A DNA stretch of 37,623 bases from a virus (IMGVR_UViG_3300025610_000065:1-37623), one strand, 5' to 3'; positions 7,101 to 26,531 are shown, counted from the stretch's first letter. Notes: a model not told the origin generated them from the sequence alone. Numbers and translations are program-made.

Positions 7101-7310
7101 TCAGAATTGCAAAATTTAAGGTCAAATATAGAAAGAGGCGTTGACCAAAACCGAACAAATGTTCGCCCTAACCAAACTGGAATGAACATACAACCAGCAT
7201 CAACTAATACAGGAATTGGAGCTATAGACGTTACTGATCCAAGTACAGCGTTAGCTTTAGGACTAAGCCCATCAATGCAAGCAATAGCCAGTAGGAATCA
7301 AACAGCATGA
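4116..7310 (+). CDS. large internal virion/ejection protein
   Basis: 1064 aa; Gly-zipper hydrophobic segment (GAIKGAAFGSVVPGLGTILGGAIGAGLG); last and largest of the cluster. Confidence 0.6.
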   Translation: MALITIELPNESFDVEIEGDQPNEAEQAAIESLIRQKTLETDTSSTEETVEEAPKFDTGTGISSGSLRAALSMAENNEEEDLILAKFGIEEGEYLRDNRGRLALTPEGASKVGQEITQNTLIDEEGFSKYDFADLASIAPELIGGVTGAIKGAAFGSVVPGLGTILGGAIGAGLGSGAGQGVEEIIEGLAGVSKQSAASIAGDIGTEAAIGFVGDLTFGVAGALFKTAKGMTYGLKELPPQEAKAAAESIGLKVPVKDPTGEPLKLLDELGQPVKNADGTDKMLLDVQGNPVIGRYEDAGLKPSLAAIGASGIISRKEKIIEKVIGPTQKQQENYQNMLKNINYFKSLTGDAGETSAEEVGQILSKGVQEEGAILNTVTQDAQKSVLETLDGIVGAFGKSTTKDVQLNDEIFSILKKSSESFDDLNTQMFGRIDDVLADTLKDPNFLSTGSLKSLASRLEAKTSSAAIFDANIGAAKSTSKAGVAKALVDSINSLGEYTSFSQLYNLRSAIGDAARVTGTKNGGRFLQKALAEIDTKLTSKNFKAELANYTDRTQQVVTGQMRTKLDDAANSLDESRAFFAKGTDLFETFGDHINVKSLNKLIMAGKDPNIDFAKKLIRDGNPKPLQSALNAIKGMTQRSADDVSQEAGLGIKRAERLRGRLANSWIREAMDDATGKVVGGLPDDLAFSGVKFSQAIDNLGATADTLFGSQAGAVKALAKQLRMTSNSKMTPEAVKKAIDEGAPKDLVDALREVNIAQRQLTQFENNSALKALNNESITPLIASETLAKPSAKAESVEAVMKFFKDRADRAVGKDPALLTKAQEDLAKMQNFYMNNVLKDFGGDAFIDGSSMKAFAKSFNEGGANGKFRSVFGEETGLQLEQFGRALNTLTKQAQGGDLIAANIASAPFQNIGKLANFSIVGKFLLNKPYFNRFMNDYKAQAAGQKDPSKARLFLGMFTEAMAQFSAQAPGQLMQEAVNEGAKQLSAVSDSAGLTSELQNLRSNIERGVDQNRTNVRPNQTGMNIQPASTNTGIGAIDVTDPSTALALGLSPSMQAIASRNQTA

Positions 7311-7768
7311 ATATAGACGAATTAAGAGAAGAATTAAAAGAAGATGAAGGTTGTAAGTACGAAATTTACTTAGATCATTTAGGTTTGCCCACATTTGGTA
7401 TAGGTCATTTAGTTACTGAATGGGATGAAGAATATGAAAAGCCAGTAGGAACACCAGTATCAGAAGAAAGAGTAAATAAATGCTTTAAAGTGGATGTTGA
7501 AGGAACAATATCAGAGTGCAAAAAATTATTTAATAACTTTGATAATTTGCCAGAAGAAGTACAAAAAATCTGTGCAAACATGATGTTCAATATGGGTCGT
7601 CCTCGTTTATCTGGTTTTAAAAAGTTTTGTGCCGCCATAGCTGATGAAGATTGGCTTGAATGTGCCGTGCAAATGGAAGATTCAAGATGGCATAAGCAAG
7701 TCACTAACCGTGCCAATCGTTTAATTAAAAGAATGGAAGCCATAGGTATAAAAGAACAAGTCGCTTAA
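7307..7768 (+). CDS. endolysin, T4-lysozyme-like muramidase (GH24)
   Basis: DEG..YEIYLDHLGLPTFGIGHL (E-D-T catalytic pattern), MMFNMG, DSRWHKQV..RA.RL. Confidence 0.9.
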   Translation: MNIDELREELKEDEGCKYEIYLDHLGLPTFGIGHLVTEWDEEYEKPVGTPVSEERVNKCFKVDVEGTISECKKLFNNFDNLPEEVQKICANMMFNMGRPRLSGFKKFCAAIADEDWLECAVQMEDSRWHKQVTNRANRLIKRMEAIGIKEQVA

Positions 7769-7956
7769 TTATTAAGTGTACCTAAACCTAAACGAGTAAC
7801 ATTGTCTTCTTCTTTAAATCTATTTGAATAATCTTTATCAACCCATATAGATATTTGTTGACGTACATTACGTCTTTCATCATCGCAAATACGTTTTAAT
7901 TTATAATAAGTATCAGTATCTATACCAATGGACTTGAATTTTTTTGGATCTGCCAT
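7765..7956 (-). CDS. ribbon-helix-helix (Arc/CopG-like) DNA-binding protein, 63 aa
   Basis: MADPKKFKSIGIDTDTYYKLKRICDDERRNVRQQISIWVD strand-helix-helix pattern; SD GGAG upstream of ATG 7956; only credible minus-strand gene. Confidence 0.65.
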   Translation of the reverse strand: MADPKKFKSIGIDTDTYYKLKRICDDERRNVRQQISIWVDKDYSNRFKEEDNVTRLGLGTLNN

Positions 7957-7962
7957 TACAAT
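7934..7962 (+). promoter_or_regulatory. sigma70-like promoter for the DUF1064 gene (leaderless)
   Basis: TTGAAT-17 bp-TACAAT; predicted start coincides with ATG 7970, which lacks an SD. Confidence 0.5.
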
Positions 7963-7969
7963 AACTCCC

Positions 7970-8347
7970 ATGTATAACAATAATAAACGAATTATAACCC
8001 GAAAATTTGGGAAACCCAACAAGTATTTCGCAAAAAAAACAGTCGCAATGGGTCTAAAGTTTGATTCAAGATGGGAAGCAGAGCGTTGGGGTCAATTAAA
8101 AGCTATGGAAAGAGCTGGTGTGGTTGATCAATTAGACAGACAAGTTAAGTACGAATTAAATGTAAATAGTCAAAAAATATGTAATTATATTGCTGACTTT
8201 ACATATCTATTAATAGAAGAAGATGGATCATCTAGATTCATAGTTGAAGACGCTAAAGGTGTTCTTACGCCTGAGTTTAAGCTAAAGAAAAAACTTATGC
8301 TTGCCATACATAATATAGATATTTTATTAACTTTCAAAAAAAAATGA
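7970..8347 (+). CDS. DUF1064-family PD-(D/E)XK endonuclease
   Basis: NKY.AKKT...FDSRWEA.R, YIADF.Y, VEDAKG..TPEFKLKKKLM. Confidence 0.85.
   Translation: MYNNNKRIITRKFGKPNKYFAKKTVAMGLKFDSRWEAERWGQLKAMERAGVVDQLDRQVKYELNVNSQKICNYIADFTYLLIEEDGSSRFIVEDAKGVLTPEFKLKKKLMLAIHNIDILLTFKKK
7991..8019 (-). promoter_or_regulatory. leftward promoter for the RHH gene with overlapping palindrome
   Basis: Minus strand TTGGGT-17 bp-TATAAT; TTGGG-AAA-CCCAA palindrome at 8007-8019. Confidence 0.4.
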
Positions 8348-8358
8348 TAGAACAAGTA

Positions 8359-8388
8359 TTGACTTTATTGTAACTAGTGCTATATATG
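8359..8388 (+). promoter_or_regulatory. promoter of the replication operon
   Basis: TTGACT then TATATA/TATATG at 16-18 bp; strong SD AAGGAGGT before ATG 8420. Confidence 0.5.
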
Positions 8389-8419
8389 AAGTTCTAGCTT
8401 ATTAACAAGGAGGTCAATT

Positions 8420-8875
8420 ATGACAAAAGAGCGAGATGTCGCATTTCAGAGCTACTTTGAAATGGACACTAAGAATTTATTCCAACACAGAAATGAACTC
8501 AAACAAAGATATGATACAGCTAAGAAAGAATTGGCTTTAATCAATGAAGTCTTAGATGCTAAACATTATAATGATGCTCGTAATGAACTTGCGAGACAGA
8601 ATAAAAATTTTGGTACAGTTACAATCCATACTCCTAACAGTAATTTACAAATGAAAATTAATGTTAAGAAGAAAGTTTCTTGGGATCAAGCTGGTCTTAT
8701 GACTACACTTGATACTCAAATGGATGCAGAAGATGCAAGACATTATGGTAAGGTAAGTGTTACTATTGAGGAGCGTAAATATAACAACGCTCCACCAGCT
8801 ATAAAAGCTCTCCTTGAGCCACATAGAACTGTCGAGATAGCATCAACAACCTACGAACTTGAGGAGGTAGAATAA
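8420..8875 (+). CDS. hypothetical phage protein of the recombination module
   Basis: Strong SD, coiled-coil N-terminus, KKVSWDQ motif, coupled to the AAA_24 gene. Confidence 0.6.
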   Translation: MTKERDVAFQSYFEMDTKNLFQHRNELKQRYDTAKKELALINEVLDAKHYNDARNELARQNKNFGTVTIHTPNSNLQMKINVKKKVSWDQAGLMTTLDTQMDAEDARHYGKVSVTIEERKYNNAPPAIKALLEPHRTVEIASTTYELEEVE

Positions 8876-9756
8876 TGGCATTGAATATAATTACAGCCGA
8901 ACAACGTATGGCTGAGAAAAAAGGTCATAAGATTGTTGTGTGTGGTCAGAGTGGAGTGGGTAAAACCACTCTTGCTCGGACTTTAGATGCAGATACTACA
9001 TTGTTCATGGACTTAGAGGCAGGTGATGCGGCTATCGAAGGGTGGCCCATAGACGTTATCCGACCTAAGACATGGGCTGAATGTCGTGACTTTGCATGTT
9101 TTTTAGGTGGTGGTAATCCATCTTTGACTGACGATCAATCTTATAGCCAAGTGCATTATGATTATGTAGTGCAACAATATGGTGATCCCTCTGAAATGAT
9201 GAAGAAATATGATACTATATTTATTGACAGTATTACTGTTGCTGGTAGATTATGTTTTCAGCATTGCATGGGTCAACCCGAAAATAGAACTAGAAACGGT
9301 ACAATAGACACTCGTGCTGTTTATGGTATGCAAGGTCGTGAAATGATGTCATGGCTAACGCATTTACAACATATTCGTGAAAAGAATGTTATTTTTGTTG
9401 GTATTCTTGACGAAAAAGTTGACGATTATGGTCGCAAGCTATTTGAACTACAAATAGAAGGCGCAAAGACAGGTCGTGAACTGCCAGGTATTGTTGATGA
9501 AGTTATCACAATGGCAGTTATGACAGGTGACGAAACAACAGGCACATACCGTGCTTTTGTATGTCAGACTTTAAATGAGTGGGGTTATCCAGCAAAAGAT
9601 AGATCGGGCAAACTCGATGTATTGGAAGAGCCACATTTAGGTAAACTTCTGACTAAAATGAGTGGCGGACAAAAGCAATCAGAAAGAGAGCTTACATTTG
9701 TTGATCCAGCCAAACAACCAACGTCTAGCAACGAAGGAGTAACTAATAATGCTTGA
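8875..9756 (+). CDS. AAA_24 / Sak4-like P-loop ATPase (recombinase)
   Basis: Walker A GQSGVGKT, Walker B IFIDSIT, DLEAG, C-terminal PAKDRSG. Confidence 0.85.
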   Translation: MALNIITAEQRMAEKKGHKIVVCGQSGVGKTTLARTLDADTTLFMDLEAGDAAIEGWPIDVIRPKTWAECRDFACFLGGGNPSLTDDQSYSQVHYDYVVQQYGDPSEMMKKYDTIFIDSITVAGRLCFQHCMGQPENRTRNGTIDTRAVYGMQGREMMSWLTHLQHIREKNVIFVGILDEKVDDYGRKLFELQIEGAKTGRELPGIVDEVITMAVMTGDETTGTYRAFVCQTLNEWGYPAKDRSGKLDVLEEPHLGKLLTKMSGGQKQSERELTFVDPAKQPTSSNEGVTNNA

Positions 9757-10357
9757 CTTAAATAATATAACCCCAGATGAGGGTAATGACTTTTCTTTAA
9801 TTCCACATGGAACTATTGCTCGTGCAATACTTTATATCAAACCACAGTTGGATGGTGTAAGGATTCCCGATTTAGCACAAGATGCTATATTTAGGCAATC
9901 AGCACATTCTTCAGCTAAATGGATTGAATGTGAATTTACCATTGTAGGTGGTGAGTTTGACAAACGTAAAGTTTGGCATAATATATTCTTTGATGGCGAT
10001 AAGAAAAATCAAAATGGTATTTCCGTATCAAAGGAAATAGGTCTTAGAACTCTTAGAGGTATTATTGATAGTGCCAAAGGGTTAAGTCCAAATGATGTTT
10101 CACCCGAAGCTAATGCTCTTAGACAAATACCAAGCCTTGAGGCAATTAATGGCATGGAGATTTGTATGAAGATTGCAGTTGAGAAAGGCACTAACGGTTA
10201 CGATGACAAGAATAAAATGCTTGCACCTGTAACTTTAAATCAAGATGGTTATATAGGTAGCGGTAATACGTCAGCACCTATGCAACCGACTGTGCAAGCT
10301 CAACCACAAGTGCAACAGCCTCAAAATGGTGTAACTCCATCTTGGGCAAATAAATAG
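9749..10357 (+). CDS. DUF669-like single-stranded DNA-binding protein
   Basis: DFSLIP.G N-terminus, EFTIVGGEFDKRKVW, Q/P-rich tail ending PSWA; follows the Sak4-like gene. Confidence 0.65.
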   Translation: MLDLNNITPDEGNDFSLIPHGTIARAILYIKPQLDGVRIPDLAQDAIFRQSAHSSAKWIECEFTIVGGEFDKRKVWHNIFFDGDKKNQNGISVSKEIGLRTLRGIIDSAKGLSPNDVSPEANALRQIPSLEAINGMEICMKIAVEKGTNGYDDKNKMLAPVTLNQDGYIGSGNTSAPMQPTVQAQPQVQQPQNGVTPSWANK

Positions 10358-10368
10358 GTTTCTGCGAA

Positions 10369-10436
10369 TCTAGCGGCAAGACTGACCTTCGTCTGCTAGA
10401 ACTCGTTTGGGTAGCACGAGTGCCGTAAAGCTACCC
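10369..10436 (+). ncRNA. structured intergenic RNA: hairpin plus H-type pseudoknot
   Basis: TCTAGC..AGAC/GTCTGCTAGA hairpin; ACTCGT/ACGAGT stem whose loop GGGTAGC pairs with GCTACCC. Confidence 0.55.
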
Positions 10437-10462
10437 TTTCATCATCTAGCAATGAGGGAATT

Positions 10463-12142
10463 ATGATACTTAGACCATATCAACAAGTAGCCGTTGATGA
10501 CGCATCAAAAGCTCTTGATAAACACAAAAACACTATCGTTGTTGCTCCAACGGGAGCGGGTAAAACTATTATGTTGTCTGCATTAGTAGGCAAGAAATAT
10601 AAAAAAGGCGATAGAGTATTAGTCATACAGCACAGAGATGAGCTTGTACGACAGAATGCACATAAATTTTCCCGTGTTAATCCAAATATATCCACAAGTA
10701 TAGTTGACGGATCAGAGAAAGATTGGTCTGGAGAAGCCATATTTAGTATGGTGCAGACGCTTTCAAGACCGAACAATTTGGATAACATGAAGCCTGTTGA
10801 CATGGTTGTGATTGATGAAAGTCATCATGCAATAGCAGATACATATCAAAGAATTATTAACAGGGTCAAAGAAGCGAACAATTCTGTAGAGATAGTTGGC
10901 TTTACAGCGACTCCTAATCGTGGAGACAAAAAAGGTTTAAAGACTGTATTCAATAATTGTTCGCATCAAATTGAGATAGGAACACTTATTCGTGAGGGTT
11001 TTCTTGTACCGCCTAAAACATTTGTTATTGATGTAGGTGTTACAGATGATTTGCAAAATGTTCGCAGAACTGTGTCAGACTTTGACATGGGCGAAGTTGA
11101 ACGAATTATGAACAAGAGAGCCATCAATGAGAAGATTGTAGATGAATGGAAAGACAAAGCGGGAGACAGAAAGACAGTTGTTTTTTGTTCTACAGTTGTT
11201 CATGCACAAGATGTATGTGATGAGTATCGTAGATCAAATGTTAGAGCCGAATTAGTTACTGGAGAAACTCCGTCAGAAGAACGTAAACAGATACTACATG
11301 ACTTGGAACATGGAGATATACAAGTTGTTGTCAATGTCGCTGTGCTTACAGAGGGCTTTGATGCTCCACCTGTTAGTTGTATTGTTTTAACAAGACCATG
11401 TTCATACAAATCTACAATGGTACAGATGATTGGTCGTGGACTCCGAACAATAGATCCAGAAGAACATCCAGACATCATTAAAAAGGATTGTGTGGTTTTG
11501 GACTTTGGAACAAGTGTGCTTACACATGGATCATTAGATGAAGGCGTAAATCTTGAAGGAGCTGAAGCTCAAAGAGCTGGAGAAGCACCTGTTAAAGTAT
11601 GTCCAGATTGTCAATCAGAAGTGCCATTGTCCTCTCGTGAATGTCCTATTTGTGGGCATGAGTTTGGCGCAGAAGGCAAAGAAGCATTAGAAGACTTTGT
11701 AATGACTGAAGTTGATCTCATGGACAGATCACCGTTTAGATGGATTGACTTGTTTAATAATGGAGTTTGTATGAGTGCGAGTGGTTTTAATGGTTTTGGT
11801 ATGGTTGCACACTTAGATGACATATCTGTAGCCATTGTAAAGCGTACTGGAGGCAAGTTAAGGGTAGTTAGTGTTGGAACTAAGGAACAAGCCATAGCAT
11901 CTGCTGATGACTTTCTAAGGAAGATTGAAGACAGTGATGCTGCTAAGAAAGGTAAAAGATGGTTAAATGAAGCTGTAACGCCAAAGCAATCGGAAATGTT
12001 GAGACGTTACGGTGTCGATGTTAAGCCAATAGATTTTAGTTGGAATAAATATAAAGCGGCTTGCTGGTTGAATTATGTTTGGAATAAAGATCAAATAGAT
12101 AAAAGAATTATAATCATAGGAGAAAAAAATGCACCGAAGTGA
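10463..12142 (+). CDS. SF2 DEAD/DEAH-box helicase with C-terminal Zn ribbon
   Basis: LRPYQ, APTGAGKT, DESHH, TATP, LTEGFD, QMIGRGLR, CPDC..CPICGH. Confidence 0.95.
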   Translation: MILRPYQQVAVDDASKALDKHKNTIVVAPTGAGKTIMLSALVGKKYKKGDRVLVIQHRDELVRQNAHKFSRVNPNISTSIVDGSEKDWSGEAIFSMVQTLSRPNNLDNMKPVDMVVIDESHHAIADTYQRIINRVKEANNSVEIVGFTATPNRGDKKGLKTVFNNCSHQIEIGTLIREGFLVPPKTFVIDVGVTDDLQNVRRTVSDFDMGEVERIMNKRAINEKIVDEWKDKAGDRKTVVFCSTVVHAQDVCDEYRRSNVRAELVTGETPSEERKQILHDLEHGDIQVVVNVAVLTEGFDAPPVSCIVLTRPCSYKSTMVQMIGRGLRTIDPEEHPDIIKKDCVVLDFGTSVLTHGSLDEGVNLEGAEAQRAGEAPVKVCPDCQSEVPLSSRECPICGHEFGAEGKEALEDFVMTEVDLMDRSPFRWIDLFNNGVCMSASGFNGFGMVAHLDDISVAIVKRTGGKLRVVSVGTKEQAIASADDFLRKIEDSDAAKKGKRWLNEAVTPKQSEMLRRYGVDVKPIDFSWNKYKAACWLNYVWNKDQIDKRIIIIGEKNAPK

Positions 12143-12416
12143 AGCACTAAAAAAAGTAGATTTAATTATAAACGGACCTAGAGCTAAAACTCATGGCGAT
12201 GCTACAGAAACTCATACATACATAGCTGAAATATGGAACATATTGTTAAGAAAAAAATTAAAAGAGCCTCTTGATATACATGATGTCTATAGAGCAATGA
12301 TAGGCATTAAACAAATTAGAAACAGTCAGAATCCAAAGGTAGAGGATAATATGATTGATGTTATCGGATATGCAGCACTAGCTATAGAGGCAAAAGATGG
12401 CAAGCATCAGAGTTGA
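12129..12416 (+). CDS. DUF6378-like all-helical phage protein
   Basis: R...HGD...IA.IW...D...D..GYAAL pattern. Confidence 0.7.
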   Translation: MHRSEALKKVDLIINGPRAKTHGDATETHTYIAEIWNILLRKKLKEPLDIHDVYRAMIGIKQIRNSQNPKVEDNMIDVIGYAALAIEAKDGKHQS

Positions 12417-12654
12417 TTACACTTTATTTTTTGAGCATCCTGTAAGTAAAAAGGAAGGCAAGATGTTCGTTCCTATAGATCTTGATTGTGGTAAAGAAGA
12501 TCTTATGGAGTATATAAATAATGCTATTATGGATACTTGTAGCGAACTTGATAACATAGTCAGTGGTAAGGCAGTTGTTCATTATTTTGGAGCTACATTT
12601 GATTTACATTTTTACATTCAGGAGGATGACGAATGTCAGATAACCATCCATTAA
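12397..12654 (+). CDS. hypothetical protein
   Basis: SD GAGG, overlaps both neighbours in the operon. Confidence 0.6.
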   Translation: MASIRVDYTLFFEHPVSKKEGKMFVPIDLDCGKEDLMEYINNAIMDTCSELDNIVSGKAVVHYFGATFDLHFYIQEDDECQITIH

Positions 12655-12854
12655 AGAGGTTTGCTCGGATTTGTTCGGAAATAGGTTGGGATAAAAAATT
12701 GTGCGATTTGTCAGAAGACGAAGTTGTTGGTATAATATCTAACATACAATTATCGTCTAATGTAGACGAGTTTTACAACGGAGAATATATTGCTCGTATC
12801 CACTTTCAATACTCAGATAAATCATGGTCGGGAGGTGGCGATGCTCCCTTCTAA
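12633..12854 (+). CDS. DUF6511-like small protein
   Basis: EIGWDKKLCDLSEDEV and C-terminal DAPF; sits just before the Cas4-like nuclease. Confidence 0.55.
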   Translation: MSDNHPLKRFARICSEIGWDKKLCDLSEDEVVGIISNIQLSSNVDEFYNGEYIARIHFQYSDKSWSGGGDAPF

Positions 12855-13560
12855 AGAAATAACACAATTAATATCAGATGCTATAGATCAAAGCATAGTC
12901 GATCAAAATGATAAAAGAACTAAACGAACTTACTTAGGTGGTTCATCTCTTGGCGAATCATGTTCTAGAAAAATACAGTATAGATACATGGGTTATGAGG
13001 CTGATGAGGGTCGTGACTTCAGTGCAAATACCTTGAGAATCTTTCAGTTTGGTCATCAAATTGAAGATGATGTTGCACTATGGTTAAAAAATGCTAAGTT
13101 TGATTTGCGTACAGAAGACAAGAAAGGCGAACAATTTGGTTTTTCTATCGCAGATGGGGAGATCAAAGGTCATATAGATGGTGTAATATGTGGAGGTCCT
13201 GTGGACATGGGGTATCCGTGTTTGTGGGAGAATAAGTCAGCCAATGATAAGAAGTTTAGAGAATTTATGATGAAAGGCGTAGCTAGAACTAATCCAGTTT
13301 ACGCAGCTCAGATAGCTTTGTATCAGGCATACATGAACTTAACAGAGCATCCATGTTTATTTACAGTATTAAATAAGAACACAAGTCAGATATATTATGA
13401 ACTTGTTCCCTTTGATAAAGTATTGGCGCAAGAGATTAGTGATAAGGCTGTGAATATTTTAGAAGCAACAAAAGCAAACGAAATTTTACCTAGAGTAGCA
13501 TTCTCAAGAGACTTCTTTGACTGCAAATGGTGTGAGTTTCAAGATAGATGTTGGAGTTAA
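12841..13560 (+). CDS. Cas4-like PD-(D/E)XK exonuclease
   Basis: YLGGSSLG..C.R, GHIDG, WENKS, Y.AQ..LY, CKWCEFQDRC Fe-S-type cysteines; SD GGAGGT supports start at 12841. Confidence 0.85.
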   Translation: MLPSKEITQLISDAIDQSIVDQNDKRTKRTYLGGSSLGESCSRKIQYRYMGYEADEGRDFSANTLRIFQFGHQIEDDVALWLKNAKFDLRTEDKKGEQFGFSIADGEIKGHIDGVICGGPVDMGYPCLWENKSANDKKFREFMMKGVARTNPVYAAQIALYQAYMNLTEHPCLFTVLNKNTSQIYYELVPFDKVLAQEISDKAVNILEATKANEILPRVAFSRDFFDCKWCEFQDRCWS

Positions 13561-13561
13561 A

Positions 13562-13604
13562 ATAGGCGACATGAAAGGTAGAGAAACAAACAAATGTCGC
13601 CTAT
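13562..13604. repeat. 11-bp inverted repeat (stem-loop)
   Basis: ATAGGCGACAT / ATGTCGCCTAT with a 21-nt loop. Confidence 0.8.
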
Positions 13605-13634
13605 AACTTCAGCCAACGAAGTAAGGATATAATA

Positions 13635-17177: not shown

Positions 17178-17184
17178 TTCACCA

Positions 17185-17213
17185 TTGACAATGTAGTTAT
17201 CATTACATATATA
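17185..17213 (+). promoter_or_regulatory. sigma70 promoter with operator in the spacer
   Basis: TTGACA-17 bp-TATATA; GTTATCATTAC at 17196-17206. Confidence 0.7.
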
Positions 17214-17244
17214 GATTATATAGGTCTATCGTAAGGAGATAATT

Positions 17245-18357: not shown

Positions 18358-18421
18358 CATGGTATTGAATACTATAGTAACTATAAAGGACTATCTTAAC
18401 TAGCAAAGGAAGGAAAGTAAG

Positions 18422-18625: not shown

Positions 18626-18806
18626 ACTATCTGACAAACTACTTGAAGTAGAATTGTTCGTAGGTGAGCAGTTGCAGGACTACACAAACGAGCAAGTGTT
18701 AAAGCAAGTCAAGATCAAGTTTGGTGTTGATATGTATGTAGAACATGCAAAAGATTTGTTGAATGAATTTCAACAAGAACTTAACTTTCAGAGGTTACAA
18801 CCATGA
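18618..18806 (+). CDS. hypothetical protein
   Basis: SD GGGAG before ATG 18618 (MSRLSDKLL...). Confidence 0.55.
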   Translation: MSRLSDKLLEVELFVGEQLQDYTNEQVLKQVKIKFGVDMYVEHAKDLLNEFQQELNFQRLQP

Positions 18807-19213
18807 TATTAGTTAAAAGAATAGATATGGCATTACATATCCAAGAGTTAGTTGCATTAGAGAACATAACTGTAAGCTATCAATCGCTTACAGAAACTGT
18901 TCCTAGATATTCAGCTATCCCGTCTAGGCGACATATAACCATTAGACCGACTAAAAATACGGGATATTATGTGTCTGCTTTACATGAAATCGGTCATATA
19001 CTTGGTGGTAATCAATCTCGTAATAACACAACAAAGGAGAAAGAAATTGGTGCATGGATTTGGGCAATGTTACATGCGATTGTATGGACAGATACTGCGG
19101 ATCGGGTCATGGCTAAAGCACTACGTTCATACGGTGTTAGCCAATCTGAAATCGAGGAAATCCAACATAAATGGAATCCAACAACAAGAGATGAGGAGCA
19201 ACAAATTGCTTAA
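18803..19213 (+). CDS. putative zincin metallopeptidase (HExxH)
   Basis: ALHEIGH followed by EIGAW. Confidence 0.6.
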   Translation: MILVKRIDMALHIQELVALENITVSYQSLTETVPRYSAIPSRRHITIRPTKNTGYYVSALHEIGHILGGNQSRNNTTKEKEIGAWIWAMLHAIVWTDTADRVMAKALRSYGVSQSEIEEIQHKWNPTTRDEEQQIA

Positions 19214-19313
19214 TGAAAAATTTATAAAAATACATATTCAACAAGCTACTCCGTACAAAATTACCTTTGTAGATAAAATTGTTCGGGCTTTGTACAAAAT
19301 GAAACAATGGTAA
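19206..19313 (+). CDS. small hypothetical protein (35 aa, TTG start)
   Basis: SD GAGGAG; fills the operon gap. Confidence 0.35.
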   Translation: MLNEKFIKIHIQQATPYKITFVDKIVRALYKMKQW

Positions 19314-19432
19314 AAAGAGCAAAAATTCATAGCACTAGCAGATCATGGGAAAAATCTCTCAAAAAATCTGCTAGAGTTAAAGAGCGCCAGCGGACAAAGC
19401 GAAGAATTGTTCGGGAAATCAAGGAGGAATAA
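19307..19432 (+). CDS. small highly basic protein (41 aa), not in the ORF track
   Basis: MVKRAKIHSTSRSWEKSLKKSARVKERQRTKRRIVREIKEE; stop abuts the next ATG. Confidence 0.5.
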   Translation: MVKRAKIHSTSRSWEKSLKKSARVKERQRTKRRIVREIKEE

Positions 19433-19543
19433 ATGGGCGAGTACGAATGTATAGATTGTAACGAAATCTTTTGGGCAGAAGAACCGCCTCACCCTAAAGA
19501 TCAATGTGATCGTTGTAGAGAAGAGGAAAAAGACAATGGTTAA
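19433..19543 (+). CDS. 36-aa Zn-finger microprotein, not in the ORF track
   Basis: SD AAGGAGG; MGEYECIDC...CDRCREEEKDNG. Confidence 0.6.
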   Translation: MGEYECIDCNEIFWAEEPPHPKDQCDRCREEEKDNG

Positions 19544-19766
19544 AATGTTTGTCCTCATATGTGTCGTTTGGGTTGAGGGCAGTCGTTATGACGGTGGTGA
19601 ACAGAAGTGTATCATGCACGAAAGCCAAGTAAAGTATATGACGTTGGATCAATGTCGTAACGATATACCCAAAAGCGAACAATTAATAGAAGGTGCTATA
19701 TATGATAACTTTGGCGAAGAGCCTATAGATCATAAAATTATGGCTGGATGTTTTGGAGGAGCATAA
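19536..19766 (+). CDS. hypothetical protein with hydrophobic N-terminus
   Basis: SD GAGG; MVKMFVLICVVW, four Cys. Confidence 0.55.
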   Translation: MVKMFVLICVVWVEGSRYDGGEQKCIMHESQVKYMTLDQCRNDIPKSEQLIEGAIYDNFGEEPIDHKIMAGCFGGA

Positions 19767-19951
19767 TGATTAGAAAAATACCAAAAGAAAAGTTTGTTAT
19801 CCATTGTAAGGAAACAAAGTATTACATGGTCGAGATCGAAGCTGATAACTACGATCAAGCCGTTAAAAAGTGGGAGAACATAGCCAAAAGGCGTGACTAC
19901 ACCACACTTCACAGAGAAATGGAAACACAAAGCGTGAGTCAAGAGGTATAA
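19766..19951 (+). CDS. hypothetical protein
   Basis: SD GGAGG, TAATG coupling; VEIEADNYDQA motif. Confidence 0.6.
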   Translation: MIRKIPKEKFVIHCKETKYYMVEIEADNYDQAVKKWENIAKRRDYTTLHREMETQSVSQEV

Positions 19952-19952
19952 A

Positions 19953-20207
19953 ATGAAACTTAAAATTATAAATAAAAAAGAAGATCAGCCTACACTTGAA
20001 GAAGCACAGGAATTTGTCGGTGGTTGGGTTGAAAGAATACTCTTAAAAAATGGCGATATAATGCTTATTGATGAAGAGGGTAAATTAAAACAAAATAGCA
20101 TTAATCCTAAAGCTACAGATTATTGGGTTAAGAGTTTTGGTATGACTGACGTTATCGTTGGTGATGCTATTTTAATCAAACAAAATGCTTTAACGGATTT
20201 ATGGTAA
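19953..20207 (+). CDS. DUF3846-like protein
   Basis: TLEEAQEFVGG.VE, DEEGKLK..N..AT, IVGDA. Confidence 0.75.
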   Translation: MKLKIINKKEDQPTLEEAQEFVGGWVERILLKNGDIMLIDEEGKLKQNSINPKATDYWVKSFGMTDVIVGDAILIKQNALTDLW

Positions 20208-20208
20208 T

Positions 20209-21327
20209 ATGATAGATATAAAGGTCGGAGATTGTCGGGAGGTGCTTAAAACCTTACCCGATAAGCATTTTCAAACATGTGTAACAAGTCCGCCATATTA
20301 CGGTTTGCGAGATTACGGAACTGATGCGCAAATCGGACTGGAAGAAACACCCGAACAATTTGTCGAGTCGCTGGTCAATGTGTTCCGTGAAGTCAAGCGG
20401 GTGCTTAAAGATGACGGAACTCTATGGTTGAATCTAGGCGACAGTTACTCAAGTGGCGGTAGAACTAGCACAACGAATCAAACTGTTCGGGGTAATACTG
20501 ACTACGGAGTTACTAGACCACCGCCTATTGTGGGTATAAAGCCCAAGGATTTGATCGGAATCCCGTGGCGTGTGGCGTTTGCCTTGCAAGCTGATGGTTG
20601 GTATTTGAGGCAAGATATAATCTGGCACAAGCCTAATCCCATGCCCGAAAGCGTACAGGATAGATGCACAAAAGCCCATGAATACATATTTCTTCTAAGT
20701 AAAAGCCCTTATTATTACTACGATAATGTGGCTATCAAAGAAGAAGCACAGGATTGGGGAACTCGAGACCGAACAAATGGTAAGTATCACAACGAAGGTA
20801 CTGGATTAAATCCGCATACTGGTCTGGAAAAGTCATACGAGACAAAGAACAAGCGTAGCGTCTGGACTGTTAACACAAAGCCTTACAAAGAAGCCCATTT
20901 TGCCGTGTTTCCTACTGATTTAATCGAGCCAGCGATACTGGCTGGATCTAGCGAGAAGATTTGTTCGGGTTGTGGGAAGTCGTACAGGCGTGAAATGGTC
21001 ACAACTGACGTTCCAGATAGAATTGTTCGGGATCATATGGTTGGCGTTATACCTAAACGGGATAAACCTACTCGTATGAATAGCAAGAATATGTTGTCGC
21101 TGACAAAGGAAGATAAAGGATTTGTTAAGCAATGTGATTGCGATACCAGTAAAACCGAACAAGATCGGGTCTTAGACCCTTTTGGCGGATCGGGAACTAC
21201 TGCACTGGTTGCTGACAGGCATAATAGAGATGCTACCGTTATTGAGCTAAATGAGTCGTATATTGAAATAGCTAAGAATAGACTGGAAGGCGATTCACCG
21301 CTTTTCGCAAATGTGGAGGTGAGCTAA
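20209..21327 (+). CDS. orphan N4-cytosine/N6-adenine DNA methyltransferase, beta class
   Basis: TSPPYYGLRDY catalytic motif before the LDPFGGSGTT SAM-binding motif; HFAVFP. Confidence 0.92.
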   Translation: MIDIKVGDCREVLKTLPDKHFQTCVTSPPYYGLRDYGTDAQIGLEETPEQFVESLVNVFREVKRVLKDDGTLWLNLGDSYSSGGRTSTTNQTVRGNTDYGVTRPPPIVGIKPKDLIGIPWRVAFALQADGWYLRQDIIWHKPNPMPESVQDRCTKAHEYIFLLSKSPYYYYDNVAIKEEAQDWGTRDRTNGKYHNEGTGLNPHTGLEKSYETKNKRSVWTVNTKPYKEAHFAVFPTDLIEPAILAGSSEKICSGCGKSYRREMVTTDVPDRIVRDHMVGVIPKRDKPTRMNSKNMLSLTKEDKGFVKQCDCDTSKTEQDRVLDPFGGSGTTALVADRHNRDATVIELNESYIEIAKNRLEGDSPLFANVEVS

Positions 21328-21623
21328 TGGCTAAAAAGAAACAGAAGAATTGTTCGCAATGTAAAGAAAAAATCATTATCGGCATGGAACTGGTAATGAA
21401 TAACCGAACAATTTGCATTGGTTGTGCTGTTGAGAAAGGAATAGCACAGAAATGGCAAGCGCCAGTAAGTCATGTTTTAAGCTGTAAATATGATTTATAT
21501 TCATGTGGCGAATGTTACAGAAACTACACCGTAATGATGGAGCATTTGGGCTATGTTTGTACCCTTAATGGTACGTTCTATAAGCCTACTAATGACCCTA
21601 AAATTGTGGTGCTTTATGAGTGA
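21327..21623 (+). CDS. Cys-rich hypothetical protein
   Basis: SD GGAGGT; three CxxC pairs. Confidence 0.6.
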   Translation: MAKKKQKNCSQCKEKIIIGMELVMNNRTICIGCAVEKGIAQKWQAPVSHVLSCKYDLYSCGECYRNYTVMMEHLGYVCTLNGTFYKPTNDPKIVVLYE

Positions 21624-21846
21624 TTTACTTACCGCTTACCAACTTACTCGGTAAGTAAAAATGACGGTAAGTAGTAAGTCATTGAAATTGTTCGGTTTTT
21701 TGAAGCAACTTACGGAGGTTACTTCTTATCACGGTAAGTTAGAATTTAGCTCTAAGTCATTGATTTTAAAGCTACTTACCAACTTACCGAACTTCCCCCC
21801 TAAAGGGGGTATAAGAGGGTGGTAAGTAAACCACCCCTCTTACCCT
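21624..21846. repeat. iteron-like repeat cluster, putative replication origin or packaging site
   Basis: About 12 CTTAC/GTAAG copies in both orientations, hairpins, two IHF-like sites. Confidence 0.6.
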
Positions 21847-21873
21847 ATTAAACTAACGTAGAATGGAGACAAA

Positions 21874-22074
21874 ATGGAAAACCCGTTAGAGAAAAAAAGA
21901 AGAGGTTATTTATCATTTTTTTGCGATGGTGTCATAGACGCTGTTGCACATCGTGAACTTGATATTAAAAAAAAATCATCTGCTTATTACAAACAAGGAT
22001 ATGATTTTGGTTTAACTTTTCGTGACGCATTAACGAAAGAAGATTTAGATGAAATTAGACAGGAGAAAAAGTAA
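21874..22074 (+). CDS. hypothetical protein
   Basis: SD GGAG; YKQGYDFG; coupled to terS. Confidence 0.6.
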   Translation: MENPLEKKRRGYLSFFCDGVIDAVAHRELDIKKKSSAYYKQGYDFGLTFRDALTKEDLDEIRQEKK

Positions 22075-22601
22075 TGCCAAAAGTAGCTGAGAATTTAACG
22101 AAGGAACAACGATTAGCTGGATGGAAAAGATTGACTGATAAACAGCAAGATTTTTTAAATAACTTTATGCACAAGGATATGACGCAGACAGAATCGGCTA
22201 GGCGAGCAGGATACGCAAATCCTGGCGTTGATGCTGTAAGGCTGTTGCGTAACCCAGTCGTTCAGGAACGCTATCAGGAAATGCGTGAAGAAGCTCGTAG
22301 TCGTTTCGGGGTTACTATTGATAAGTCGGTGCGTGATCTTCTTAAAATCCGTAACGAAGCGTGGGAGAGCGGTAAATTTGGTGAGGCTATTCGGGCTGAA
22401 GAATTGCGTTTAAAGGCTACTGGGTTGCTTGTAAACAAAGCTCATGTACTACATGAACGCACAGACAGCATGACAAGAGACGAAATACTGGCAAAACTAC
22501 AGGAATTCCAAGAGATAGCACAGAAACGCATGAAAACAGCCATAACCACCCATAAAGACCCAAACTTGATAGAGCAAAGTAGCGTAAAACCCAAAAACTA
22601 G
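22074..22601 (+). CDS. terS: terminase small subunit
   Basis: LTDKQQ.F...TESARRAGY...RLLRNPVV N-terminal HTH pattern of Terminase_2-type TerS. Confidence 0.8.
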   Translation: MPKVAENLTKEQRLAGWKRLTDKQQDFLNNFMHKDMTQTESARRAGYANPGVDAVRLLRNPVVQERYQEMREEARSRFGVTIDKSVRDLLKIRNEAWESGKFGEAIRAEELRLKATGLLVNKAHVLHERTDSMTRDEILAKLQEFQEIAQKRMKTAITTHKDPNLIEQSSVKPKN

Positions 22602-22629
22602 CATATTTACTTGGAGGGGGTACTCTCAG

Positions 22630-22900
22630 GGTCTCCCGAACAATTCCTGTGGGCATAGGGATCGGGGTACTATCGGGCTTGTTATCGGGCTAATTGTTCG
22701 GGCTTTGATCGGGATCGGGCTTGTGATTGGGGTCATTCTTTGCCAAATTGTTCGGGTCAGGATCGGGGTCCTCCTGCTCCCAGCAACCCGAACAATTGTT
22801 CCAGTTGTAACGCCAGCAGGTCACGCTGTCCGTCCTGCTGGAAACCGAACAATTGTTCTCTACAGCAGGTAGCTGGATCTGGCACGGCTGGTTCAGGTAA
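22630..22900. repeat. GC-rich non-coding cluster of CCGAACAATT, ATCGGG and CCTGCTG motifs
   Basis: CGAAC-type sites at 22636, 22692, 22746, 22788, 22845; several ATCGGG and CAGCAGG/CCTGCTG. Confidence 0.8.
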
Positions 22901-22946
22901 TTTATGTCATATGATATATTTTTTTTATTTTTTTTTAATTTAGTTG

Positions 22947-22975
22947 TTGACAAGGTAGCAATCATTACATATATT
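22947..22975 (+). promoter_or_regulatory. strong sigma70 promoter, cassette 1
   Basis: TTGACA-17 bp-TATATT, upstream T tract, GCAATCATTAC in spacer. Confidence 0.8.
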
Positions 22976-23007
22976 AGTATTAATTAATCAGCTAATGGAG
23001 AAAAAAA

Positions 23008-23373
23008 ATGATAGTACAAACAGTAAATGAAAACCAATTTATAGACGCTTTTAGAACTTGGGATACATACAAGAATAATTTTTCTTATGAAGGATTAAAG
23101 GCATTATATGAGGAATTAGAGCAAGTTGCGGAGTGTATGGATAGCGGTCAAGTTGAACTTGATGTAGTTGCGATCTGTTGTGATTATACAGAATACGAAA
23201 ACTTTCAAGAGTTTGTAGACGCTTACGGAGATAAATACAAATATATATTTGGCGGTAATAATGACTGCATTGATTATTATACTTCCGTCATTCTTCCTGA
23301 TTGTTGGATAGGAAAAGACCAAGACAATCACGAAGAAATAAAAGATTTACCATTTATAGTCCAACAGTTTTAA
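23008..23373 (+). CDS. acidic conserved phage early protein
   Basis: NFSYEGLKALYE, ELDVVAICCDYTE; SD GGAG. Confidence 0.75.
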   Translation: MIVQTVNENQFIDAFRTWDTYKNNFSYEGLKALYEELEQVAECMDSGQVELDVVAICCDYTEYENFQEFVDAYGDKYKYIFGGNNDCIDYYTSVILPDCWIGKDQDNHEEIKDLPFIVQQF

Positions 23374-23384
23374 CGGGGGTCAGC

Positions 23385-23462
23385 ATGTTATTTTATACAA
23401 TCTTTTTGAATGTGGTAGCATTCGCACTATTTACCGCAACAGTTTTACTCTTTCTTTTGTAA
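23385..23462 (+). CDS. 25-aa hydrophobic single-TM micropeptide, not in the ORF track
   Basis: MLFYTIFLNVVAFALFTATVLLFLL; SD-like GGGGGT; ends before the terminator. Confidence 0.45.
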   Translation: MLFYTIFLNVVAFALFTATVLLFLL

Positions 23463-23477
23463 TTGTTCGGGGATCGG

Positions 23478-23503
23478 ATCGGGGGTTCTTCCCCCGATTT
23501 TTT
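23478..23503 (+). terminator. intrinsic terminator
   Basis: ATCGGGGG-TTCTT-CCCCCGAT plus T run. Confidence 0.7.
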
Positions 23504-23640
23504 CCTGTAGATACCGAACAATTGTTCCCTCCCCTCCCCCTCCTGCTGTGAAACCTGAAACCGAACAATTGTTCTCTTTTGTCCTGCTGGTTCAGGAAAT
23601 CCTGCTGTGAAATAAAAATAAAAAAAAGTTTATTTAGTTG

Positions 23641-23669
23641 TTGACATATGTGTAATCATTACTTATATT
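23641..23669 (+). promoter_or_regulatory. strong sigma70 promoter, cassette 2
   Basis: TTGACA-17 bp-TATATT, upstream A tract, GTAATCATTAC in spacer. Confidence 0.8.
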
Positions 23670-23702
23670 AGTATTAAGTTAAACAAGCCAATGGAGAAGC
23701 AA

Positions 23703-23888
23703 ATGAATAACATGAGTAAACTGGTAACAATATGGAACGACTGGACTAAAGCGAACAACTTGCCCAGCATGAGTGCCAGCGAGCTACTTTGGCAAGAAGG
23801 GTTAGATGAAAGCCAAAAAAGATTCATCAATGCCTTCATCGAAATGTGGGAATCAATGTCAGCATACACATCATCTTGGGATCAATAG
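23703..23888 (+). CDS. hypothetical early protein (61 aa)
   Basis: SD GGAG before ATG 23703; between promoter and terminator. Confidence 0.7.
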   Translation: MNNMSKLVTIWNDWTKANNLPSMSASELLWQEGLDESQKRFINAFIEMWESMSAYTSSWDQ

Positions 23889-23897
23889 GTTTCTCCG

Positions 23898-23930
23898 AAA
23901 AAAGTCCAGCAGGTTGCTGGGCTTTTTTTT
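23898..23930 (+). terminator. intrinsic, possibly bidirectional terminator
   Basis: A run-GTCCAGCA-GGT-TGCTGGGC-T8. Confidence 0.8.
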
Positions 23931-24041
23931 ATCTACAGGGCGAACAATTGTTCGCTATTATTTTCCTGTTGGCAATGAAGCAGGTAATAAAGTAACGACT
24001 GGTAATAATAATGTTTTTATAGGTTTTTATGCTTTTACTAC

Positions 24042-24070
24042 TTGACAAGGGTAGTAATGATTGCTATATA
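24042..24070 (+). promoter_or_regulatory. sigma70 promoter, cassette 3
   Basis: TTGACA-17 bp-TATATA; GTAATGATTGC in spacer; leader TAAACAAGCCAATGGAGAA identical to cassette 2. Confidence 0.75.
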
Positions 24071-24103
24071 TATAGTAATTAAACAAGCCAATGGAGAAAT
24101 AAT

Positions 24104-24274
24104 ATGTTTGATATAGAGTATAAACTAGGTTGGAGATACATAGTCTGGGTAGGCGGTGTAGACGATTATTATAAAAACTATAAAGATGCAAAAGAGGCAG
24201 CTAAAGAGTGGACTGATGCAGGTTACGACTTTGTGGAGATTCAAGAACTATCAGAATTAAGAGGGAGTCAATAA
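24104..24274 (+). CDS. 56-aa hypothetical protein, not in the ORF track
   Basis: MFDIEYKLGWRYIVWVGGVDDYY...; SD GGAG; TAATG coupling to the next gene. Confidence 0.7.
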   Translation: MFDIEYKLGWRYIVWVGGVDDYYKNYKDAKEAAKEWTDAGYDFVEIQELSELRGSQ

Positions 24275-24738
24275 TGTTGTACTTAGCATACGGTGCAAAC
24301 CTAAACAAAAGAAACATGGCAGTAAGGTGTCCACTTGCGACACCTTTATGCAGTATTGATCTAAGAGGTTACAAGTTATCATTTAATAATGTGGCGACTA
24401 TCGTTAAATCAGAAAATGATTCCGTTCCCGTTGGAGTGTGGAGAATAACTGAAGAGTGCGAGAAAGCATTAGATAGATATGAGGGCTTTCCTAATCTATA
24501 CCGAAAAGAATACTTGGACTTGACTAAACTCGGATTGAATCAGGGTATGGTATATATAATGAACTATGGTGGTAAAGCAGTACCGAACAAAAGCTACTTC
24601 GATACCATAAAGCAGGGGTATCAGGACTTCCAGCTCAACACCGAACAATTAGTGAATGCTGTACTGGAAGCATATGATTATGAAAAAGATGCTGGTCGAG
24701 TCATTCAAACAAGGCGTGGCGGGGGTAGATGGAGGTAA
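24274..24738 (+). CDS. gamma-glutamylcyclotransferase (GGCT/AIG2-like)
   Basis: YLAYGANL...RCP, ALDRYEGFP.LY, MVYIM. Confidence 0.88.
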   Translation: MLYLAYGANLNKRNMAVRCPLATPLCSIDLRGYKLSFNNVATIVKSENDSVPVGVWRITEECEKALDRYEGFPNLYRKEYLDLTKLGLNQGMVYIMNYGGKAVPNKSYFDTIKQGYQDFQLNTEQLVNAVLEAYDYEKDAGRVIQTRRGGGRWR

Positions 24739-24760
24739 TTGTTCGCTTCACCCAGCAGGA

Positions 24761-24786
24761 AAACCCAGATCCTTCTGGGTTTTTTT
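24761..24786 (+). terminator. intrinsic terminator
   Basis: AAACCCAGA-TCCT-TCTGGGTTT plus T run. Confidence 0.8.
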
Positions 24787-25008
24787 ACAGGTAAATAACG
24801 AACAATTGTCCGCTAATCGGGAGGACGCTGATCGGGGAACACCCTGATCGGGGAATTTTCTGACGGCATTTCTGAGAATCCCAATCCTGAGATCCCCACT
24901 CTTAATGAAAATTTTTTTGATTTTTTTTTTAAAAATAAAAAAGTCAATAAAAACAAGGACTTATAAGTAATTAAATTATTTATATACTATATATACAAAA
25001 AATAAATG

Positions 25009-25036
25009 TTGTAATGATTACTAGAACTGTTATTTT
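25009..25036 (+). promoter_or_regulatory. probable promoter and operator of the amidoligase gene
   Basis: TTGTAA...TGnTATTTT; GTAATGATTAC at 25011-25021. Confidence 0.5.
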
Positions 25037-25072
25037 AATTGGACATTTTAATTTAATTGAGGAAACAAACAA

Positions 25073-26266
25073 ATGACTATTTTAAACAACAACAACAGAC
25101 CATATTTTTTAACTTTTGGTTTAGAGCCTGAATTTGTCAGACCGCATTATTCAAATGTAGATATTCATAATCATGTTGATGGAGTATTTGCAAAATCAGA
25201 TGGCAGTTTAAGAGATGGAGGAGAATTAGAATTACCAATTTATGCTGATAGCAATAGAGCATGGGAACATATAGAAAAAGTTTTTAACGTAGCAACAAAC
25301 CAATATAATTGCGTTTCAAATTCGTACAAATGTTCTGTTCATGTTCATATTGGAATGCGACCAATAGACAGAACAATTGTTAATGAACAAACTTTTACAA
25401 ATGAAAGTATTAATTTTGCACAATCAAATAATAATATTAGATCGAGAATTGGAGCAAAAATATCTGATTATTTTGGGCAACCTTTACCGCTAGAAATTGC
25501 TAGAGATGTTAGTTATAGAATTGTAAAAGATATAGCTTTATTTTCAACAATGCTAACACCAAAACGTAGAGACTGTTATTACGCTAAGTATCCATCAACA
25601 ACTGCACAAGCCATACAAAACACTAGAGCGGATATAAATAGCTTAATATCATCAATAAGCACAGAACGTAAGTATTCAGCGATTAACTTACTATCACTTG
25701 CACCAAATAATTATAGTAACAATGTAAAGTATACTATGGAATTTAGATCACATAGCGGATCTATGGATATGCCAAAGTTAAGAAATTGGATAAGATTTTT
25801 ATTAAACTTAGCTTATCACTCAATTGATACTAGATTTGTACAAGCTCAGAGCTTGCTACAAACACCAAACGTAATTGCAAGGCATGGAACAAAAGCACAA
25901 ATTGTTTGGGAGCTTGCAAGATCAGATAATGGAGCATCTACACAAGAATTAATGAATGCTAGCAATATAAGATCAGCTCAGAGAATTAGAGTTATGTTTA
26001 GTGAATGGAGAACTCAGTTAGCAAATACTTTTGGACAGAATGTTATTGAAACATTAACACAACAACATTATGGACATAGATATTCTACAAGTAACGGACA
26101 ACACGATTTAAACGGCTATAGAATACCTAGAGAAATTCAAGGTAATGGAAACGGTTATGTATTTAATGGTGCAGGAGATGCAGGAATACTTGCAGGAATG
26201 AATGCAGAATTATTGAATGCAACCAACCAAAGAATTCAAGAAATTGCTACTATCCGATCTCGATAG
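25073..26266 (+). CDS. amidoligase (COOH-NH2 ligase, Amidoligase_2-like) with C-terminal winged-HTH-like extension
   Basis: TFGLEPE, SDGSL, GELELP, CSVHVH, KY.AIN, TMEFR.HSG, NWI. Confidence 0.85.
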   Translation: MTILNNNNRPYFLTFGLEPEFVRPHYSNVDIHNHVDGVFAKSDGSLRDGGELELPIYADSNRAWEHIEKVFNVATNQYNCVSNSYKCSVHVHIGMRPIDRTIVNEQTFTNESINFAQSNNNIRSRIGAKISDYFGQPLPLEIARDVSYRIVKDIALFSTMLTPKRRDCYYAKYPSTTAQAIQNTRADINSLISSISTERKYSAINLLSLAPNNYSNNVKYTMEFRSHSGSMDMPKLRNWIRFLLNLAYHSIDTRFVQAQSLLQTPNVIARHGTKAQIVWELARSDNGASTQELMNASNIRSAQRIRVMFSEWRTQLANTFGQNVIETLTQQHYGHRYSTSNGQHDLNGYRIPREIQGNGNGYVFNGAGDAGILAGMNAELLNATNQRIQEIATIRSR

Positions 26267-26299
26267 TAGCAACCAAAACAATTGTAATTAAAATGTAAA

Positions 26300-26330
26300 A
26301 GGCGGGATTTTTCCCGCCTATTTTTTATTT
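26300..26330 (+). terminator. intrinsic terminator
   Basis: AGGCGGGA-TTTT-TCCCGCCT plus T-rich tail. Confidence 0.8.
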
Positions 26331-26531
26331 ATTAACAGAACAATTGTATTTATTTAATTATTCTTAAAATTATCTAAGTTATTGATTTTACTATATAAAT
26401 CGGGGATATACACCCTATACACCACCAAAATATATATACAAACAATCAAAAAAGTTCTAAACCGTGTTCCCCTCAAACGACCCCCATCAATTTCAAAAAC
26501 GACCTCCAAAAAAAATTTTATAAAAAAAATC

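Follow-up and report, generated by a model that had tools for sequence, protein, structure and literature searches.

A graded field of 14-bp palindromes in a marine podovirus genome and the phage's own winged-helix amidoligase as their candidate ligand

Why should a phage genome carry one short palindrome more than thirty times over one part of its length, inside genes as well as between them, and which protein reads it? These questions are raised by the virus record IMGVR_UViG_3300025610_000065:1-37623, and "the window" below means this whole stretch of 37,623 nucleotides (37.6 kb, 37% GC), in which every called gene lies on the + strand. The window is part of the genome of a marine podovirus related to the HTVC023P-type phages; its large terminase (TerL) is 56-61% identical to those of HTVC023P, HTVC027P, psg01, and DSL-LC04, and near-complete relatives of the phage reach up to 51-55 kb. 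It encodes ejection proteins, lysozyme, resolvase, Sak4, helicase, a Cas4-like nuclease, primase, methyltransferase, and the small terminase TerS, followed by small early genes, a gamma-glutamyl cyclotransferase, an amidoligase, an XRE protein, TerL, and an SU10-type portal. We believe that the palindromes are a real, clade-wide feature, a variant of the iterated operator fields of phages with a named candidate ligand. Tentatively, at a probability of roughly 0.42, we suggest that they are bound by the phage's own early amidoligase, which carries a winged helix-turn-helix (wHTH) domain, and that this protein coats one end of the linear infecting chromosome.

The full site, CGAACAA followed by TTGTTCG, is a 14-bp pseudo-palindrome that is strong in arrays and weak in genes. 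The sequence CGAACAATT occurs 34 times in the window, 17 times on each strand, where an order-3 Markov model expects 0.51. Twenty of these copies lie in coding sequence, in all six frames, against means of 0.71 and 1.44 in the global and per-gene synonymous-codon shuffles, respectively, and 20 copies were reached by 0 of 300 shuffles in either test, in which two small genes carried wrong coordinates. A sequence-only reading of the window had claimed that the sites fall on both strands and are not a codon artefact, and these counts bear it out. The half-sites that it placed between 10769 and 24737, its palindromes at 22790, 22847, 23516, and 23563, its 16-mer at 23940-23955, and its distal copies at 470, 2854, and 34895 are all present. 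As a dyad found on both strands, the site does not suit a Chi-like role, which was ruled out. The sites are laid out as follows.

7151..22600, both strands: gradient zone with 29 CGAACAA sites in six frames, nearly all within replication and accessory genes, the second half mostly degenerate
22636..22858: array 1, five sites at intervals of about 50 bp that precede promoter P1, in a GC-rich spacer containing TCGGG repeats
23461..23574: array 2, a group of three sites preceding promoter P2
23940..23955: 16-bp palindrome without mismatches, preceding promoter P3
24583..24812: the final four strict sites, located before the amidoligase promoter and forming the strict right edge of the field
470..479 (-), 2854 (-), and 34895 (+): distal background copies

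The pattern therefore has two parts, dense near-full palindromes in the spacers between early genes and weaker half-sites scattered within genes. Across 10 contigs, the second half had at most two mismatches to TTGTTCG in 72 of 130 early sites versus 19 of 154 upstream sites. In the window, CGAACAA dyads number 0.29, 1.29, 2.53, and 4.48 per kb over 1-7, 7-14, 14-21.5, and 21.5-24.85 kb, respectively, and 0 and 0.09 per kb to the right of the arrays (24.85-26.4 and 26.4-37.6 kb). The polar gradient that had been claimed holds in part: placement departs from uniform (Kolmogorov-Smirnov p=1e-4), but within 7-22.6 kb the window by itself shows no significant slope (p=0.18); with 161 sites pooled from nine contigs, which are related to each other, the slope is significant (p=1e-9). 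The abrupt end had been set at about 26.4 kb, whereas the strict motif stops at 24.8 kb and only forms lacking CG (25371 and 26338) extend to 26.35 kb.

The motif and its polarity recur in related phages. In 10 of 10 relatives (TerS 59-88% identical where present, GC 37-47%), the top 7-mers include CGAACAA or a word that overlaps it. Around the XRE gene of nine clade contigs, there are 165 sites in the 72 kb to the left versus 5 in the 72 kb to the right. Pooled over the contigs, sites number 0.2-0.5 per kb far upstream, rise to 1.2-1.8 within 8 kb of terS and to 5.2 immediately after it, and fall to 0-0.1 over the next 10 kb; in the 39 kb of terL plus portal there are only 6 sites. A scan for the perfect 14-mer gave 152 stretches from 10 of the 64 parts of the collection, and among the 71 loci of at least 3 kb that were scored, 0.9 sites per kb was reached by 33 of 52 clade loci versus 0 of 19 non-clade loci; non-clade viruses carry the motif singly. 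The clade is widespread, with 672 TerS relatives, and the phage collection searched holds no cultured member of it.

The positions of the coding sites turn over among nine genomes. The helicase has 19 sites at 6 alignment columns and the primase has 32 sites at 14, and no column is common to all nine. Coding sites are thus gained and lost at many positions, which suggests that selection keeps their density and not fixed places. This bears on the idea that the field is a neutral by-product of the duplication and shuffling of early promoter cassettes. The cassettes do recur as whole units that strains exchange, and many distant relatives have repeats of their own in this interval. However, such a process cannot make single six-frame sites in helicase and primase through several synonymous changes; for coding sites it is refuted, and as a whole we regard it as highly improbable.

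The proteins that might read the sites are encoded close by.

25073..26266, +: Amidoligase_2 protein of 397 aa (glutamine-synthetase-like fold) with a winged helix at residues ~269-355, putative ligand
22074..22601, +: terS, small terminase (Terminase_2 by Pfam match, SF6/SPP1-like), tested as site ligand and unsupported
24274..24738, +: gamma-glutamyl cyclotransferase (AIG2-like), possible eraser partner
26581..27193, +: small gene labelled RHH-like by the sequence-only reading (no family match), and the XRE gene

The amidoligase model has a predicted local distance difference test score (pLDDT) of 88. Its enzyme fold matches glutamine synthetase (Z 12.3, root-mean-square deviation 3.5, 216 aligned), and the winged helix matches wHTH proteins at a middling score (Z 6-7). 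Amidoligase_2 (PF12224) was matched by 35 of 36 family members, and DUF3489 was matched by 12 of the 36 and HTH_24 by one. E18, E20, E51, H90, H92, R165, E223, and R225 are invariant in the 36 proteins, and we take these acidic, histidine, and arginine residues to be catalytic. R306 and R313 of the recognition helix are retained in 35 and 34 of the 36, respectively, most of these proteins being 19-38% identical to that of the window.

The evidence that carries our reading is co-occurrence, scored in 99 loci that span the early region (59 non-redundant; the loci are not independent of each other). Every early region with the amidoligase-wHTH gene, L645 among them, carries sites (53 of 53, with 6-22 sites), and every one without it carries none (6 of 6). 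Nor was the gene found in 37 distant sequences (TerL 43-65%) or in 66 sister-lineage loci that use other motifs. Among the ligands considered, only the amidoligase-wHTH fits all cases. From the list of ligands that the sequence-only reading had drawn up, this protein thus survives, and TerS, XRE, and the RHH-like protein drop out. The XRE gene is missing in 7 array-bearing loci that run to terL, while L160 has 6 sites without the RHH-like gene and L647 has that gene and 0 sites, so both proteins are unlikely ligands. The phage methyltransferase, found in 3 of 11 contigs, was ruled out.

TerS deserves more attention, since the sites could load or stop the packaging motor near a pac site or repeat boundary. 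The densest array lies directly after terS in all relatives, the arrays fill a zone of doubled depth described below, and the TerS helix is constant in the clade and different in lineages with other motifs. Nevertheless, in L498, L630, L635, L636, L647, and L683 this helix is identical to that of array-bearing sisters and there are no early sites (L473 is similar); these loci are without amidoligase in this interval and most carry TGTGATCACA clusters, while L647 has a third type of early module. In addition, psg01 and G023 have another motif in common but not the TerS helix, and the TCGGG repeats, kept in 5 of the 6 negative loci, suit TerS better. The TerS model is poor (pLDDT 62), with weak structural matches to SPP1/SF6-type TerS. 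We therefore believe that TerS is an improbable ligand, and packaging termination is the least likely of the roles offered for the array (ejection ratchet, protection of first-entering DNA, packaging termination, and repressor sink), because sisters with the same helix lack it. The TCGG(G) word has a gradient of its own over 9-26.4 kb of the window once the main motif is masked, and in the early spacers it is biased to the + strand.

A host protein could also use the field as a sink or operator set. The Gram-positive-type LexA box is CGAAC-N4-GTTCG, and the alphaproteobacterial box is a GTTC-N7-GTTC direct repeat. The likeness of the palindrome to the former, pointed out in the sequence-only reading, was confirmed; in 9 of 11 contigs GAAC and GTTC are preferentially spaced by N4, and the motif stays the same across 37-47% GC. 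Against a host repressor, non-clade viruses carry the 14-mer singly, close sisters are without arrays, and the alphaproteobacterial N7 box occurs 0-4 times per contig with no excess over neighbouring gaps. The IHF-like sites, DUF6511, GTA-type holin, and DUF3489 presumably point to a proteobacterial host. Host LexA is thus disfavoured, and a host ligand of any kind seems quite improbable.

Several points weigh against the amidoligase as ligand. A single block, which is exchanged as a unit, contains both the arrays and the gene, so their joint loss is expected by linkage alone, and the six negative loci come down to about two alternative modules or events. Outside the block, in a weak test, the upstream 7-mer density is 0.80 per kb with the gene and 0.71 without it. 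The upstream regions had 2 good palindromes in 12.7 kb where about 4 were expected, and decayed second halves were found only in L635 (0.86 versus 2.4-3.3 matches), of which 16.5 kb of a 62-kb contig was seen, so that an amidoligase could sit elsewhere there. For L636, gene absence applies to the stretch of the contig covered. Amidoligase-less variants make up 9 of 156 typed loci, which indicates that the system is dispensable, and the wHTH helices are variable outside the two arginines. Judged by titles and the beginnings of abstracts, none of the literature found deals with the motif or with a wHTH-amidoligase with cognate sites.

Why, then, does the field end so sharply? Contig depth over ~22.2-26.4 kb is 1.36-2.03 times that of the flanks in 7 of 7 runs. 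In run X7, which looks single-strain, the depth series is 5.75, 9.34, 11.1, 6.87, and 5.84, with steps near 22.25 and 26.38 kb. The following features lie here.

22250..26380: elevated-depth zone, putatively ~4 kb of terminal repeat or redundancy; run X7 alone gave the edge estimates
26300..26319, both strands: terminator-like hairpin that closes the early module
26375..26490: conserved non-coding element at the depth step, with an IHF-like site, a G-tract/C-tract, and GTTYHCCWCAAAC (33 non-redundant relatives aligned); candidate terminase cut region
21620..21860: conserved block of CTTAC/GTAAG iterons (inverted repeats) that also contains G/C tracts and an IHF-like site; candidate for a replication origin or a second terminus element

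Of 10 contigs, 9 have the iteron block upstream of terS and 8 have its IHF-like site, and TCGG(G), a candidate terminase-related repeat, starts the 26.4-kb element. The plateau is what a terminal repeat of ~4 kb would give, and we treat it as a lead and not as a map: this depth is that of assembled contigs from mixed populations, longest pieces only, and the tool warns that it is not copy number, all of which weakens our reading. If the terminal repeat is right, the genes to the right of 26.4 kb lie at the opposite end of the molecule. Of the two ends of the linear chromosome, the field would belong to the right one, because it does not spread from the left copy into terL. The proposal that an array for one protein marks one end of the virion chromosome gains from the near doubling of depth, and its edge at about 26.4 kb agrees with the right depth step; its one-sidedness holds for the gradient alone, since the dense block is probably at both ends. 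Contig ends at 26484-26497 were rejected as a terminus, as a polymorphism at 26498 can account for them.

An ejection ratchet, which had been among the roles proposed, fits some of these data. Packaging would run from 26.4 kb leftwards, the gradient would enter the cell last, and a protein made from the first-entering repeat would bind it and pull it in as the pressure falls. The called genes all lie on one strand, the early promoters would point inward from the left end, and the field takes up roughly the final quarter of a genome of 55-60 kb. The plateau depth also climbs from left to right in X3, X4, X5, and X7 (not in X2) and then falls, as a fixed right end would predict. However, variants without gene and arrays exist, a ratchet has no need of a ligase domain, and an order like that of P22 would run opposite to the direction that it needs. 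We consider this role clearly unlikely.

The main rival is promoter control by the same wHTH protein, which would activate or repress early promoters from the arrays, with the genic sites as a weak antenna or decoys. The promoter elements are as follows.

22947..22975, +: promoter P1, sigma70-type, with the palindromic spacer motif GYAAT-S-ATTRC at 22958-22968
23641..23669, +: promoter P2, sigma70-type, spacer motif GYAAT-S-ATTRC at 23652-23662
24042..24070, +: promoter-like site P3, found by eye and absent from the scan output, spacer motif at 24054-24064
25011-25021: fourth GYAAT-S-ATTRC copy, before the amidoligase

The best palindromes stand 70-200 bp upstream of each promoter-like site, the site spacings have a weak 10.5-11 bp phase (Rayleigh p 0.01-0.05, five periods tried), and in the alternative modules another palindrome, TGTGATCACA, occupies comparable positions. 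On the other hand, the -35 and -10 elements are free of array sites, and the sites lie 70-200 bp upstream of the -35 or within genes; site spacing ranges from 20 to 127 bp, and the promoter spacers hold a separate motif. Regulation also leaves the one-sided 12-kb field in genes and the conserved ligase residues unexplained, and we hold it to be rather unlikely. The spacer motif itself, between the -35 and -10 of early promoters, is a candidate shut-off operator; it has a variant near 26545, and there are 0-2 copies in 7 loci without XRE and 0-5 in XRE-bearing loci.

In the amidoligase reading, which we favour, the wHTH is predicted to read the palindromic site CGAACAATTGTTCG, probably as a dimer, on a field packed in the early module and thinning across the next 12 kb. 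The early module would be the terminal repeat of ~4 kb, which would explain the abrupt edge, and selection would act on the linear chromosome. The density of sites, not their position, would matter, as in systems that mark chromosome domains. The predicted ligase activity would likely be tethered in cis at the coated end and would act early in infection, as the amidoligase gene has its own promoter-like site. Most speculatively, the tethered enzyme may glutamylate host proteins that meet this DNA early, such as factors of defence or silencing, and the cyclotransferase may serve as an eraser.

Known systems resemble parts of this scheme. In MatP/matS, RacA/ram, and Noc/NBS, a dimeric protein binds palindromes over one chromosome domain, within genes, and density matters. 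The proposed system likewise has palindromes across one domain and inside genes, but it would be phage-encoded, on a 16-kb scale, with the binder fused to a ligase; the Pfam and fold matches listed include no MatP, RacA, or Noc homology. T5 and the short repeats of T7 are further terminal-repeat comparisons. In SPO1 and the Twort/K-like long-terminal-repeat phages, early host-takeover genes lie in a repeated terminal block, as proposed here, and the part of PMC3896407 covered describes no sequence-specific site field reaching 12 kb into unique DNA. The window phage differs from these long-repeat phages as a podovirus with an SU10-type portal and an SF6-type TerS.

The closest likeness is in the Cluster O mycobacteriophages, whose 17-bp repeat TGTTCGGNNNCCGAACA (TGTTCGG-N3-CCGAACA) has invariant halves (PMC4351075, in the part covered). 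There too, more than 30 dyad sites lie in genes and spacers, mostly off promoters, with 23 of 34 toward one genome end, and the heptamer CCGAACA is common to both motifs. The order of the half-sites is opposite, the spacing is different, and the second half is degenerate in the window. Those phages are unrelated siphoviruses with cohesive ends, and in that part of the paper the ligand proposal goes no further than a "dimeric protein". Mycobacteriophage stoperators, as described in the excerpts covered, are asymmetric and oriented with transcription, unlike a dyad found 17 times on each strand among genes that are all on the + strand.

The enzyme also has relatives. According to the parts of PMC5498523 and PMC3890496 covered, phiEco32, LUZ24, and RIO-1 have a cassette of Amidoligase_2 and gamma-glutamyl cyclotransferase, the pair found in the window, and phage amidoligases are described as peptidoglycan modifiers (PMC5498523, same limit), a role that needs no DNA binding; PMC7824862 names amidoligases in a reference only. 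Unlike that of the phiEco32/LUZ24 cassette, the window amidoligase carries a wHTH and has an early position. No amidotransferase or ATP-grasp partner was found among the 55 window ORFs (open reading frames) or the 44 scanned ORFs of G006, both contigs being incomplete, and in several relatives the cyclotransferase gene is placed elsewhere in the genome.

The HTVC023P-type pelagiphages have TerL 56-60% identical to that of the window and early cassettes between terS and terL, and they are without the window motif and the amidoligase-wHTH; in the portions covered of PMC9599517 and bioRxiv 2019.12.14.876532, "terminal repeat" and "headful" have no match. HTVC027P (7-bp GCTTG tandems before early cassettes; L083 16500-17700) and HTVC023P (different repeats; L001 12450-15000) share a host strain. 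Phage-specific motifs on one host favour phage-encoded binders. In the corresponding interval, L218 has a 17-bp palindrome seven times, L203 and L194 have GGCCGCAAG repeats, L224 has CCAGCTGG repeats, and some other distant relatives have no clear motif. The cultured Pag-Yong1 has 35 GGTTCA-N3-TGAACC sites (at most one mismatch) genome-wide, with a peak of 8 per 5 kb in the early region; the literature searches found no paper on this 15-bp palindrome.

Some side observations were also made. The alternative early module has TGTGATCACA clusters with ~20-bp spacing at L498 4580-4680, L473 2500-2560, and L635 9437-9485, and a scan for this palindrome found no further clade member. Pag-Yong1 (L308, L267, L309) has GTCATACA repeats before terL. 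A phage-like stretch in a bacterial bin (L291-L293; G028:C21, 1-45 kb) has AAGTTC-N4-GAACTT about every 3.5 kb (13 sites with at most two mismatches). L203 starts with an inverted duplication of several hundred bases (1-1300), an assembly artefact or an invertible segment, and L192 ends with eight tandem copies of a 21-bp unit (15976-16138). TerL-bearing phage contigs L187-L266 sit in bins labelled with many unrelated phyla, archaea included, which suggests misbinning, and a Dehalococcoidia chromosome carries a partial terL (L226). In the window, an 869-aa protein upstream of terL (27239-29848) is highly variable with a conserved proline-rich start, and has no family match; neither for it nor for the wHTH did the protein atlas yield anything usable. 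DNA polymerase A, present in HTVC023P-type phages, was not found in the window phage, and G006 (L175-L177, 93% complete) has no unassigned ORF of that size among the 44 scanned.

Taken at its widest, the finding may describe a phage-encoded chromosome-domain system. An early enzyme of glutamine-synthetase fold would read its own palindrome, be concentrated on the terminal quarter of the genome by a gradient of sites in coding sequence, pull in or anchor that end, and tag host proteins in cis, and Pag-Yong1 and other podovirus lineages would do likewise with other palindromes and binders. On balance we consider this wider proposal unlikely. Iterated palindromes without an assigned ligand have been a puzzle in phage genomes since Cluster O. 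In this clade, natural knock-outs single out a testable candidate binder, and the fusion of a ligase to a wHTH suggests site-tethered chemistry on phage DNA.

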